In this document: positions 7,683 to 16,885 of the stretch, one piece after another | Layout: each line of letters opens with the position of its first letter | Position numbering within the stretch: the first letter of the stretch is position 1 | Source: Candidatus Jordarchaeia archaeon | GTDB taxonomy: Archaea > Asgardarchaeota > Jordiarchaeia > Jordiarchaeales > Jordiarchaeaceae | Reading direction: 5' to 3' | Length of the DNA: 20,166 nucleotides | NCBI GenBank assembly: GCA_029856435.1 | Contig: JAHQXB010000085.1 | Coordinates: 1 to 20,166, forward strand | Position numbers and translations under genes: made by a program | The notes under the pieces: generated by a model | Seen by the model: only the letters and a program-made list of their open reading frames with translations | Database searches by the model: none | What the model was told of the DNA's origin: nothing

Positions 7683-7911
7683 GCGGGACAGTTAGAAGAA
7701 AAATTTTCCAACAAACATGTTAAATTCCTTTTTAGTTTCATTTACCAATTTGTTTTTACAATTTTTTGATGATTGAGAACCTTCTGATGAAGCTTGAACT
7801 TGGTCGAACCATCCTCATTACAGAAAAGCCCAAAGTTCGACGAAAAATGCGATAAAAAGCCCAACACAATAGAGATGCACAATTATTCAAATAAGTTTAA
7901 GATTCAAATTT

Positions 7912-13616: not shown

Positions 13617-15773
13617 CTATTTGGCTATTTTTAGTGTTGGGAGGCCGTAGAGGTTGAATGTCGCCCAGAGTGTTCCAGGATATCTTTGTTTCAATTCCTT
13701 TTTGATTTCCCTCATCATTGTGCCTAGTGTTTCCTCGCCGGGAATAATTTTTTCGTAGAATTTCATGGCTACTTCTGAGGCTAGGTCCTCCGGTATTTCC
13801 CAAAGTGGTGCAATAACCGCTGCGGCTCCCCCGGTGAGAAAGGTTTTTGCTATGGCTGCAGTTCCTACGAATCTTTTGGCTCCGGTTCCCTTCCTCTCCC
13901 TAGTTTCCTCATGGAGATCTGCGAATATTATTGGGTTCCCTTCGATGTGGATTTTTTCAATTTCGTCCATTTCCATTGTGGCGTCGCTTAACACCAGCTT
14001 TGTTCTGGTGGGCTGCTGCTCATCGAATATCACTGAACATCGAATGTGGATTACATCTACCCCTTCGGATAGCGCCTTTTTGAAGCCGTCTCTATCTCCC
14101 TTTTCCGTTCCTGCCAGAATCAGTTCGCTTGCCTGTGCCCTCTTTAGGAATTCCTTCTCGCGGGTTGCCGTTTCTTTTCTGGTTTCTGCTGCCACCAGTT
14201 TTATTCTCAGTTTTTCTGCTCCCATTCTGGGTGGAGGTGTTCTATAGTCTAAGTTTTCGCTGAGGGTAATTTTTCCCAAGCAATGCTTGAGGCATAGGAA
14301 ATCTTCTTCGTCATAAGCTAGTTCAAAAGGAACGAAGAGATCCTCTGTCGCTAATATTAAGTGTCTGGGGTTCAGATATTTTATGGAATCCCTTATCCCT
14401 TTGGGAATCAGGCTGTATGCTTTTCTACCTATTTCGGTGAGAATGGTCGATACTCTCTGCGGTTGCTCCTTGTCAAAGGCAATATTCCTCATATGTAGTA
14501 GAAGTCTCTCTGCAGTGGTGGGGTCTATCTCACTTGAGCCGAAAAATTCGCCCCTTTGAACCAGTTCTTCAGCATGCCTAGTGAAAAGGTGGAAATATAA
14601 CCTGTTTTGGAAATGGTGAATCCTAAGTGTTGCATCCAAATCCACGTCCGGGTAAAGGGATAACTCAACTTTTCTCTTTGTTTCTAGGGCTTCTTCAGGT
14701 GTCTCCTTAACGAAAACATCTGCCACAACACGTTGCAAAATTACTCCTTGGAAGTAAAATTCCACAAAGAGTTTATGCCTACCCAACCTGCGGGGAGTAA
14801 GCCTAACTTGCAGTGTTCTCGTTTCCCCATCAATGGGCACTGAGATTTTCCTCCGAGGCTCACCAACATCAAAATTGGGAGCCAAAACCAGAACCTCAAT
14901 ATAAGTCCCCCTAATCTTTTCTACAATACCTTTAAAGGCTTCGGGTCGTCCAAAGAAGGTAATTTCCCCTTCCAGAACAAGGTTTAGAGCCTGCTCCTTA
15001 CCCATTTCCATAAATTCTCTATACGTGATTATCATATTACTCCTTAGCCCTTCCCCAAGCACTTTTTGGGGGATCCAAACCTTCTCCCTAGCTACTTTAG
15101 GCTCCGCAGCAAGTCTCTCACCGCTCTCTTCCCTCCACTTGCCAACCTCCTTCTGGTAGCGCTCAGTCTGTGGTTTTACCTCCACACCACCCACAATTTG
15201 AACTTCAAACTTTTGACTCAACTCCTTTATTTTGCTCTCCAACTTAAGAGTGTGGGGTAAATCCAGATTTTTTCCCAGCTCGAGGGCACCTTCATAATAT
15301 TTTAGGGCCTTTTTCCAGTCTCCCCCTTCCTCGTAGACCTGCCCCAAATATATTTGGATATTTGCTGAACTCTTTTTATCCCCTAACTTTTCAAATAGGC
15401 TGTGCACCCGTTCCAAGTGGCTAATGGCCCGTTCATAGTTGCGACTCTTTGCTAAATAGGTGACCAAAAGGTTAGTGTCGCTAAGAATCTCTTCCTCGTT
15501 TTTTCTCCTAATCTGGATTTCCAAATCTCTCTCAAAATATTCGGCGGCTCTGTCCCACTTTCCAAGAAAACCCTGAATCTTCCCCAAGGCTTTCAAGCAG
15601 AGGCTAACCTCAACCTCAGAACCTACCCTCCCAAAAACATCTAAAGCCCTTTCAAAGCGCAGCAACGCTTCATCCCAATCCTCCCGCTCAACCAAATCCA
15701 AGCCCCTTTCATAAAGAAATAAGCCCGTCTCCAACTCCAGTTCAGAAGAAGACAAGGTCAACCCGCTCCTCAC
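13617..15773 (-). CDS. TPR-repeat protein with central beta-sandwich region and C-terminal CHAT (caspase-like) domain lacking the canonical dyad
   Basis: N-terminal ~4 TPR-like units (A...FERALDVF, LGKIQGFLGKWDRAAEYFE, LGQVYEEGGDWKKALKYYEGALEL). CHAT hallmarks LFVPFEL, FLCLKH, AKTFLTGGAAAVIAPLWEI, FYEK, WATFNLYG.P. Start could be GTG 15773 or TTG 15761/15755. Confidence 0.87.
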   Translation of the reverse strand: MRSGLTLSSSELELETGLFLYERGLDLVEREDWDEALLRFERALDVFGRVGSEVEVSLCLKALGKIQGFLGKWDRAAEYFERDLEIQIRRKNEEEILSDTNLLVTYLAKSRNYERAISHLERVHSLFEKLGDKKSSANIQIYLGQVYEEGGDWKKALKYYEGALELGKNLDLPHTLKLESKIKELSQKFEVQIVGGVEVKPQTERYQKEVGKWREESGERLAAEPKVAREKVWIPQKVLGEGLRSNMIITYREFMEMGKEQALNLVLEGEITFFGRPEAFKGIVEKIRGTYIEVLVLAPNFDVGEPRRKISVPIDGETRTLQVRLTPRRLGRHKLFVEFYFQGVILQRVVADVFVKETPEEALETKRKVELSLYPDVDLDATLRIHHFQNRLYFHLFTRHAEELVQRGEFFGSSEIDPTTAERLLLHMRNIAFDKEQPQRVSTILTEIGRKAYSLIPKGIRDSIKYLNPRHLILATEDLFVPFELAYDEEDFLCLKHCLGKITLSENLDYRTPPPRMGAEKLRIKLVAAETRKETATREKEFLKRAQASELILAGTEKGDRDGFKKALSEGVDVIHIRCSVIFDEQQPTRTKLVLSDATMEMDEIEKIHIEGNPIIFADLHEETRERKGTGAKRFVGTAAIAKTFLTGGAAAVIAPLWEIPEDLASEVAMKFYEKIIPGEETLGTMMREIKKELKQRYPGTLWATFNLYGLPTLKIAK

Positions 15774-15805
15774 AAATAAGTCCTAGTGCTTATTAATTTA
15801 CTAAA

Positions 15806-15813
15806 TATTTAAA
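15806..15813 (-). promoter_or_regulatory. TATA-like box (TTTAAATA) for the TPR-CHAT gene
   Basis: Reads TTTAAATA on the minus strand ~33 nt before the GTG at 15773; position fits an archaeal promoter. Confidence 0.35.
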
Positions 15814-15864
15814 ACTATTCCCCTCACTAATAAATATAAACTATATATAAGACAGCACAGTAAA

Positions 15865-15888
15865 ATAGTAAAGGAAAATTTTTACTAT
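15865..15888. promoter_or_regulatory. Palindromic operator-like site ATAGTAAA-N8-TTTACTAT
   Basis: Perfect 8 bp inverted repeat with 8 nt spacer ~50 nt upstream of the TATA-like box; AT-rich, so it could be chance. Confidence 0.3.
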
Positions 15889-15958
15889 ACCTAATTTTCA
15901 CTAAGGAAATTAATAAGTGCATTTTTGGATAGGTTCACCCATCAGTCTATTTCTCGCA

Positions 15959-16283
15959 TAACCTCGGAGGAATGAGGAATAAGACACAATTTCTTGCACG
16001 TGTCTAAGTCAGATTATGAGGGTTAATCTGGCTTTAAAGGCTCCCTTTTCCGAAAAGGAGTGTTATTACCCATATGTTTAAACAATACTCCGGGGGCTGA
16101 ATTTTTGTGGTGTGAGCTTGCCTTAGCCTGTCTCTGCATCCCTTCCTACCTCCATTTTTTACAAAAAGGTGTTAAAAAAAGATGGGGAGATGGTTTCCTT
16201 CAGGCCAGCCACAAAAACAGATCCCTACAGGTAGGAGTGCTGCCTAAACATATGGTTATTACAGTTTCTTTTCTTGGAGGTTA
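15959..16283. ncRNA. Candidate structured non-coding element (unclassified ncRNA, cis-element or MITE-like fold-back)
   Basis: Nested inverted repeats 16070-16080/16245-16255, 16087-16091/16234-16238, 16102-16110/16209-16217, 16126-16130/16201-16205 and 16131-16140/16181-16190, plus hairpins at 15982-16005, 16008-16032 and 16041-16060 and a 7 bp closing pair 15959-15965/16277-16283. Confidence 0.5.
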
Positions 16284-16378
16284 ACGTTCACCAAAAAAGG
16301 CCTAAATAGAACCTCTTTTGGGGTTAGTTCTACTACCCGTTAAGTGGTCACGAAAAATAAAAGTGTTTCAGGTTGTAT

Positions 16379-16885
16379 TTATTGTTTCTCTTTCTCTTCT
16401 AGTATTATTTGCACTGCGAGTCTGGCAGCGTTTCCAACTACTGTTGAGCAGTGGTCCAGCATGCCGGAGGAGAAGGCTTCATTCAATTCTTTTTGGTCCC
16501 AAAGGTTATAGGTTCGCCCCATGAGTCTCTTTTGTATGTCGTGACATCGGCAAGCTCCAAACTTTTCTACAAACTGGTCGTGGAGCTTTTTAACCAATGA
16601 GTAGGCTTTCATTGGTTTAAATGGGTCTTTGAAGTCTTTTTTCTCTCTGGGATAAAGCCAGCTTATCACCATAGATGCTCCTACAAGTGCGCCGCAGGCT
16701 CCATTTCCCGTTAGACCCAAGCCATCAGCTAAACCGCTTGCAGCCTTAAACACATCTTCATTCCACATGCCCAAAGTCTCAAATATAGCAGCAATCACTG
16801 TTTGGGCGCATCCTGTATTCTCTTTTTCATACTTTTTACCCAGCTCGAAGGCTTTATCCAGAAGTTTCTTCTTCGACTCTGTCAA
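16379..16885 (-). CDS. C-GCAxxG-C-C family putative redox-active protein
   Basis: 168 aa. TGCAQTV, GLADGLGLTGNGACGALVG, CRCHDI and DHC give the family cysteine pattern. TTG start after GGGGTGA. Confidence 0.9.
   Translation of the reverse strand: MTESKKKLLDKAFELGKKYEKENTGCAQTVIAAIFETLGMWNEDVFKAASGLADGLGLTGNGACGALVGASMVISWLYPREKKDFKDPFKPMKAYSLVKKLHDQFVEKFGACRCHDIQKRLMGRTYNLWDQKELNEAFSSGMLDHCSTVVGNAARLAVQIILEEKEKQ

Follow-up and report, generated by a model that had tools for sequence, protein, structure and literature searches.

The closest described systems are the Sulfolobus elements SM1 to SM4, which are reportedly short, non-coding, multicopy, intergenic MITEs whose terminal inverted repeats (TIRs) copy those of a resident insertion sequence (IS), and which are said to generate target-site duplications (TSDs) of their own and to be mobilized in trans. 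The element described here is like them in being short, non-coding, multicopy and intergenic and in carrying IS-like TIRs and its own TSDs, and mobilization in trans is also what we infer for it. It differs from SM1 to SM4 in its Asgard host, its termini (CCATATGTTTAA...), its 7-bp TSD, and in having a parent IS that belongs to no curated family. MITEs as such have long been known in archaea, as indicated by Redder 2001 and Brugger 2002, both cited in PMC13343696, and the papers devoted to Asgard mobile elements describe, among their contents, IS-like transposons, aloposons, integrated elements, and viruses; MITEs do not appear in the one of these papers that was consulted. Our literature search returned no paper joining Asgard archaea with MITEs in the transposon sense.

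The window, i.e., the whole 20,166-nt stretch of Candidatus Jordarchaeia archaeon DNA that was analyzed, contains a segment between the C_GCAxxG_C_C and TPR-CHAT genes (positions 15959 to 16283) which the initial annotation had taken for a single structured element of 325 nt, with a novel ncRNA, a long cis-regulatory leader or 3′ UTR, or a non-autonomous fold-back element as candidate identities. We can assign window positions 16070 to 16255 with high confidence to a family of non-autonomous DNA transposons (MITEs), of which they form one copy. The 186-bp element is ordinary mobile DNA, not a new RNA gene. The features of the locus, in window coordinates, are the following:

13617 to 15773, minus strand: TPR-CHAT gene.
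15959 to 16062, no strand: host spacer with three hairpins, outside the element; single copy in the genome and present in sister species without the MITE.
16063 to 16069, no strand: left copy of the TSD, TTATTAC; same 7-mer on both sides.
16070 to 16255, no strand: the MITE copy (the "rod"), 186 bp, self-complementary over its whole length.
16070 to 16091, plus strand: left TIR, CCATATGTTTAAACAATACTCC, kept at the left end of all copies.
16102 to 16110, no strand: subterminal motif TTTTTGTGG, pairing with CCACAAAAA at 16209 to 16217.
16234 to 16255, minus strand: right TIR, reverse complement CCATATGTTTAGGCAGCACTCC, conserved in all copies.
16256 to 16262, no strand: right copy of the TSD, TTATTAC; same 7-mer on both sides.
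16263 to 16283, no strand: host spacer to the right of the insertion, in which the 3′ arm of a proposed closing stem lies; outside the element and adjoining 16069 in two sister species (G001 and G003).
16379 to 16885, minus strand: C_GCAxxG_C_C gene.

A BLAST search of the archaeon's own assembly (G000; 3.54 Mb in 181 contigs) with the 325-nt segment as the query returned 27 matches at an E value of ≤1e-5, 20 of which were full-length copies with 82 to 90% identity; together with the fragments, the matches are distributed over ~25 contigs. Several of the fragments end at contig ends, as is expected where a repeat breaks a short-read assembly. The recurring part of the query comprised positions ~112 to 297 only, corresponding to window positions 16070 to 16255. 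When the copies were aligned with 50 nt of flanking sequence, the similarity started sharply at CCATATGTTTAA (CCATATG) and stopped just as sharply at TAAACATATGG (CATATGG). The TIRs, starting with CCATATGTTTAA, are 22 bp long and conserved in all copies, and the two ends of the family consensus agree with each other at 19 of 22 nt. The base pairings that had been listed from the sequence were all present in it, the 11-bp terminal pair lying, according to the inverted-repeat finder, within a 40-nt arm pair (16052 to 16091/16234 to 16273). The same program returned the listed 9-bp pair, TTTTTGTGG/CCACAAAAA, as an exact inverted repeat (16102 to 16110/16209 to 16217), and this pair is nearly invariant throughout the subfamilies. 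The element is under the ~500-bp size limit of MITEs and has no coding capacity; an overlapping 74-aa frame (16060 to 16284), mentioned in the initial annotation, has no Pfam match and is broken by 1- to 2-nt indels among the copies.

In the window, the filled site reads TTATTAC-[186 bp]-TTATTAC. Across the family, the 7-bp flanks match each other at 7/7 positions in 11 of the 20 copies and at 6/7 in four more, and their sequence differs from site to site. Two sister species have the spacer without the element. In contig G001:C73, similarity to the window breaks off after 16069 and resumes at 16256, the two matches overlapping by 7 bp, and the contig reads GAAAAGAGGGTTTATTAC|AGTTTCTTTTCC (...TTATTAC|AGTTTC...) with the 7-mer present once; G003:C188 matches in the same way and reads ...TTTTCAC|AATTTC..., the 7-mer again occurring once, as TTTTCAC instead of TTATTAC. 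Together, G001 and G003 present the precise unoccupied site in two sister species of the same genus, from which it follows that transposition brought the element to this site within the lineage leading to the Candidatus Jordarchaeia archaeon genome. The sequence to either side (15959 to 16069 and 16263 to 16283) is single-copy spacer that is also found in the sister species. With transposon borders at 16070 and 16255, and TSDs at 16063 to 16069 and 16256 to 16262, the view of the 325 nt as one unit was wrong, since only 16070 to 16255 is repeated in the genome. Of the candidate identities put forward in the initial annotation, the non-autonomous fold-back element is the right one for the 186-nt rod, on the evidence of its copies, TIRs, TSDs, and empty site; a copy-number and empty-site search, which had been suggested as a check, gave the 20 full-length copies and the empty site in G001 and G003. 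Overall, all six features by which a MITE is recognized were found: a short, non-coding sequence, TIRs, a TSD, dispersed copies, an empty site, and termini shared with an IS.

Some of the insertion sites have flanks that can pair with each other across the 7-bp target. This was observed at ~4 of the 20 sites, where 8 to 11 of 11 to 12 positions pair (expected, ~4.5), namely at window positions 16044 to 16080 and at G000:C150:898, C79:34594, and C96:9125, all of which have left flanks resembling GAAAAGRAG. Intergenic hairpins that were already present seem sometimes to have received the element in their loop. A palindromic target as a general rule was rejected because it fits only those ~4 of 20 sites. 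Two other copies, G000:C150:848-1133 and G000:C112:3-288, have identical left flanks and different right flanks, the second being without a matching TSD; either the copies have recombined with each other, or the assembly was joined across the repeat.

TIR-pair scans of the archaeon's own genome found one longer element with the same termini, G000:C115:5752-7835 (L009:753-2836), and no second full-length IS. This is a decayed ~1.9-kb IS, which probably represents the parent lineage of the MITE, with its transposase gene on the minus strand, damaged by a MITE insertion, one frameshift, and stop codons. The MITE that splits the gene (C115:7047-7230) is an unrelated one of 184 bp, with TIRs starting with GAACTTGTTAAAAAA and a 9-bp TSD (GGTACCCGC), and the genome has no fewer than 17 other copies of it with 82 to 93% identity; when it is excised together with one copy of its TSD, the transposase frame is continuous across the junction. 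Directly abutting the IS "B" end, at G000:C115:5722-5751, is a lone 30-nt copy of the "A" end that is identical at 26 of 30 positions to the real A end at 7835; it may be left over from a nested insertion or from ends that were joined end to end. The ORFs near other solitary TIRs had no transposase-family match, one being an ATP synthase subunit and most being without any family match.

A word-based search with the C-terminal fragment of the C115 transposase returned two proteins of 245 to 247 aa on contigs of 2.1 to 2.2 kb. The ENA metagenome contig L031 carries a near-intact, complete IS of 1,813 bp with ~80% DNA identity to the C115 copy and with the ends CCATATATTCAGACGAAACTCC and CCATATGTTCAGACAAAGCTCC (termini CCATATATTCAGAC.../CCATATGTTCAGAC...); L032, labeled "Thermoproteota archaeon," holds the right IS end and both ORFs. 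The MITE consensus ends have 15 to 20 of their first 22 nt in common with the IS ends (C115 and L031/L032), the left-TIR consensus matching end A of the decayed C115 IS at 20/22 nt and the right-TIR consensus matching the IS ends at 15 to 17/22 nt. Inside IS end B, TTTTTTGTTC is a T-run motif resembling the subterminal TTTTTGTGG of both MITE ends, at the same distance from the end. The likeness between MITE and IS is limited to the ~22-nt termini plus this weak subterminal resemblance; the comparison suggests that one IS end, present twice in inverted orientation, may have given rise to the MITE.

ORF1 of the parent IS (306 aa) has an N-terminal CxxC...CxxxxC zinc ribbon along with three invariant motifs, IDG, VSD, and HQxCxxH, and ORF2 (247 aa) has the motif RTNNxLE; in full-length relatives of 520 to 620 aa, the motifs of both ORFs are all found in one chain. 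The two closest near-intact IS copies, L031:446-2201 and L032:286-1863, both on archaeal contigs, have such a split transposase, the D, D, and C/H motif being located in ORF1 and the glutamate of TNNxLE in ORF2. The two ORFs of L031 overlap by ~60 nt near A-runs (A8 at 1290 to 1297 and A6 at 1322 to 1327), with ORF2 in the +1 frame, those of L032 share a frame with at least one stop codon between them, and the nearest database proteins stop where ORF1 stops. The split could represent recoding, a two-subunit enzyme, or decay.

Weak, partial Pfam and NCBIfam matches were obtained to MULE/Mutator, IS256, ISH6, ISL3, IS66, and ISKra4. The best NCBIfam scores were 15 to 55 bits against cut-offs of 150 to 240 (IS256, 27 to 37 versus 150; IS66, 25 to 55 versus 180), and the Pfam matches (MULE, Transposase_mut, DDE_Tnp_ISL3, and DDE_Tnp_IS66) were mostly just under or at the cut-offs. 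A few distant full-length relatives exceed the Pfam cut-offs (P0011: DDE_Tnp_ISL3, 32.9 versus 23; MULE, 32.2 versus 27.6); the transposases of L031 and L032 were above no family cut-off in Pfam or NCBIfam, and no single family was passed consistently. The parent transposase is predicted to be of the DDE type, is distantly IS256/ISL3/IS66-like, and fits no curated family.

The parent IS is like the Mutator-like group of IS256, ISL3, IS66, ISH6, and ISKra4 in the weak, partial match of its transposase to the catalytic core (second D plus C/H motif; TNNxxE region), in its N-terminal zinc ribbon, and in its length of 1.7 to 1.8 kb. It is unlike that group in that its NCBIfam scores are far below the cut-offs and the transposase of the closest IS copies is split in two ORFs. 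TSDs in the ISfinder families IS256, ISL3, IS66, ISH6, and ISKra4 are typically 8 to 9 bp long, versus 7 bp in the present family. A Rhodovastum protein with the RefSeq label "ISNCY family transposase," which denotes an unclassified IS, and unannotated relatives from Microvirga, Roseomonas, Deinococcus, Nostoc, Paenibacillus, and Methanoperedens show 30 to 43% identity to ORF1 over ~240 to 270 residues with the same order of motifs; they are often found on contigs of 1.6 to 1.7 kb that are typical of a repeated IS. These ISNCY-type relatives, likened to the parent IS at the protein level, differ from it in being mostly bacterial and in having single-ORF transposases of 520 to 620 aa. One RefSeq relative does not read as a single ORF, the length of its annotated CDS being indivisible by three. 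An exhaustive HMMER search yielded 117 cluster representatives, and relatives at 27 to 43% identity turned up in many bacteria, in Methanoperedens, and, within the same phylum, in 23 of the 201 genomes sampled. Relatives were recovered by an alignment-based scan; a search with a single protein found none, and when 150 Asgard genomes were searched with the weakly conserved middle part of the decayed transposase, it matched only itself.

A plausible course of events is that the DDE transposase of a parent ~1.8-kb IS with the same termini mobilized the MITE in trans. The enzyme would bind both inverted repeats, excise or copy the element, and insert it through a 7-bp staggered cut, in this case at TTATTAC in the spacer between C_GCAxxG_C_C and TPR-CHAT. 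No intact autonomous partner was found in the archaeon's own assembly or in the genus, and no close intact transposase copy in the genus; only a decayed copy and short fragments are present there. Because the genome has just one close copy of the parent IS and that copy is decayed, the family looks here like an ageing and probably no longer mobile population.

Related full-length copies with 67 to 72% identity, each with its own 7-bp TSD, were found in three of the five other species of the genus; no MITE copy was found in the remaining two, one of which is represented by a complete single-contig genome. In the archaeon's own genome, a copy starting at G000:C111:30991 has the TIR CCATATGTTCAAACAGG... 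and is like the main subfamily of the sister species G003, so that at least two subfamilies coexist there.

That the locus is highly structured, as the initial annotation had it, is borne out. RNAfold gave −114.4 kcal/mol for the plus strand of 15959 to 16283 (z, −5.52; 0 of 100 dinucleotide shuffles as stable) and −100.7 kcal/mol for the minus strand (z, −4.53), and against the shuffles the fold of the 325 nt is thus more than chance; positions 16070 to 16255 alone fold as a rod of 63 pairs (z, −5.0 and −3.8 for the plus and minus strands, respectively). Each half of the element is similar to one and the same IS end, the two being inverted relative to each other, which would account for the rod-like fold. 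Among the 20 own-genome copies, the consensus rod of 60 pairs was 93.4% paired, versus 93.7% when the 3′ partners were shuffled among the copies, and one pair showed a double change versus 2.8 expected from the shuffles, so that substitutions between copies are not compensated. RNAalifold recovered only the TIRs and small helices from a cross-subfamily MAFFT alignment, in which there was one clear covariation in the TIR (position 10, T-A to C-G), equally expected from ends that have to fit one transposase. The rod is probably not an RNA under structural selection.

Single copies from diverged subfamilies fold either as full rods (z down to −9.1) or in branched form (z, ~−1.5 to −2.6), and whole-length self-complementarity recurs in subfamilies that are only ~70% identical. 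A family-level hairpin requirement, in DNA or in RNA, is conceivable. We regard it as unlikely that end-to-end self-complementarity is a functional requirement and more than a relic, whether because the unclassified DDE transposase acts on fold-back (hairpin/cruciform) DNA or because the host now uses copies as bidirectional archaeal terminators or insulators; a subset of insertions, which fall in loops of hairpins already present between genes, would be in keeping with structure-dependent targeting.

It is quite improbable that the copy in the window has been co-opted by its host, the rod with its central oligo-T serving as an archaeal terminator or insulator between C_GCAxxG_C_C and TPR-CHAT or altering the expression of TPR-CHAT. 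Oligo-T is an archaeal termination signal, and the center of the element has T6 on the plus strand and T7 on the minus strand. The copy follows the C_GCAxxG_C_C stop codon at a distance of 123 bp and precedes the TPR-CHAT start codon by 296 bp; as both genes are on the minus strand, the spacer presumably has the terminator of the former and the promoter of the latter. All 20 copies are intergenic, many of them 12 to 250 bp from a gene end. However, intergenic placement would also be given by purifying selection against insertions into genes, the orientation relative to co-directional neighbor genes is unbiased (five same, five opposite), the pairs are not maintained by compensatory changes, and the sister species are without the element at the same site. 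None of the fold, covariation, and orientation data indicates a strand-specific RNA. Outside the element, window positions 16291 to 16300 (CCAAAAAAGG) have a T6 on the minus strand ~80 nt past the stop codon of C_GCAxxG_C_C, a run that is largely conserved in the two sister species and plausibly is the archaeal terminator of that gene.

A structured ncRNA of 325 nt, a long cis-regulatory leader, or a 3′ UTR is a very unlikely explanation. The strong fold z-scores speak for such an RNA, as does the G+C content, which for the element is indeed higher than in the flanking spacer, as had been noted; the inverted halves of a transposon, however, explain the fold, the transposon boundary and its TSD split the unit, and the orthologous spacer of the relatives, which lacks the element, contradicts it. 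The novel ncRNA is further opposed by ends that match an IS-end family and by copies without covariation or strand bias, and no Rfam family matched at the gathering threshold anywhere in the window; a permissive Rfam scan of 15750 to 16450 (E ≤ 10) gave a single chance match outside the element. As for the three upstream hairpins of the initial annotation, their pairings are present and one, CAGAT/ATCTG (~16008 to 16032), is kept in the relatives, but they do not belong to the element and the others are not conserved as structures: their z-score of ~−2.7 in the window compares with −0.06 (plus) and −2.0 (minus) in the orthologous stretch of G001, and neither relative retains the 3′ arm of hairpin 1 (GTGTCT), both having unrelated bases in its place. 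Nor did the proposed closing stem, TAACCTC/GAGGTTA, hold up in the relatives, GGTTA having become GGTCA in G003, where one pair is lost with no compensating change.

To our knowledge, HUH-mediated insertion generates no TSD and needs no TIRs. The reading as a REP/BIME-like or IS200/IS605-derived palindromic element (PATE), whose mobility would depend on a Y1/HUH transposase recognizing single-stranded DNA hairpins, can be dismissed as extremely improbable since, although the element is palindromic throughout and IS200/IS605 elements occur in >65% of Asgardarchaeota genomes (PMC13343696), it is contradicted by the TSDs (clean or near-clean at 7 bp in 15 of 20 copies) and by termini that match a DDE-type IS.

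Overall, the data reveal a MITE family that is new but familiar in kind and derives from an IS lineage unplaced in current schemes. What is known of how MITEs work is unchanged by it. Fold z-scores alone would label each of its at least 20 copies a "novel structured RNA," and recognition of the family removes such false positives; the family also explains several contig breaks in the draft assembly. In metagenomic studies of populations, the differences in insertions could be used as strain markers. For the biology of these archaea, the family means that non-autonomous transposons have been active in an Asgard genus, with insertions that differ between its species, and that these transposons trace to a DDE transposase family which current IS classifications do not place.
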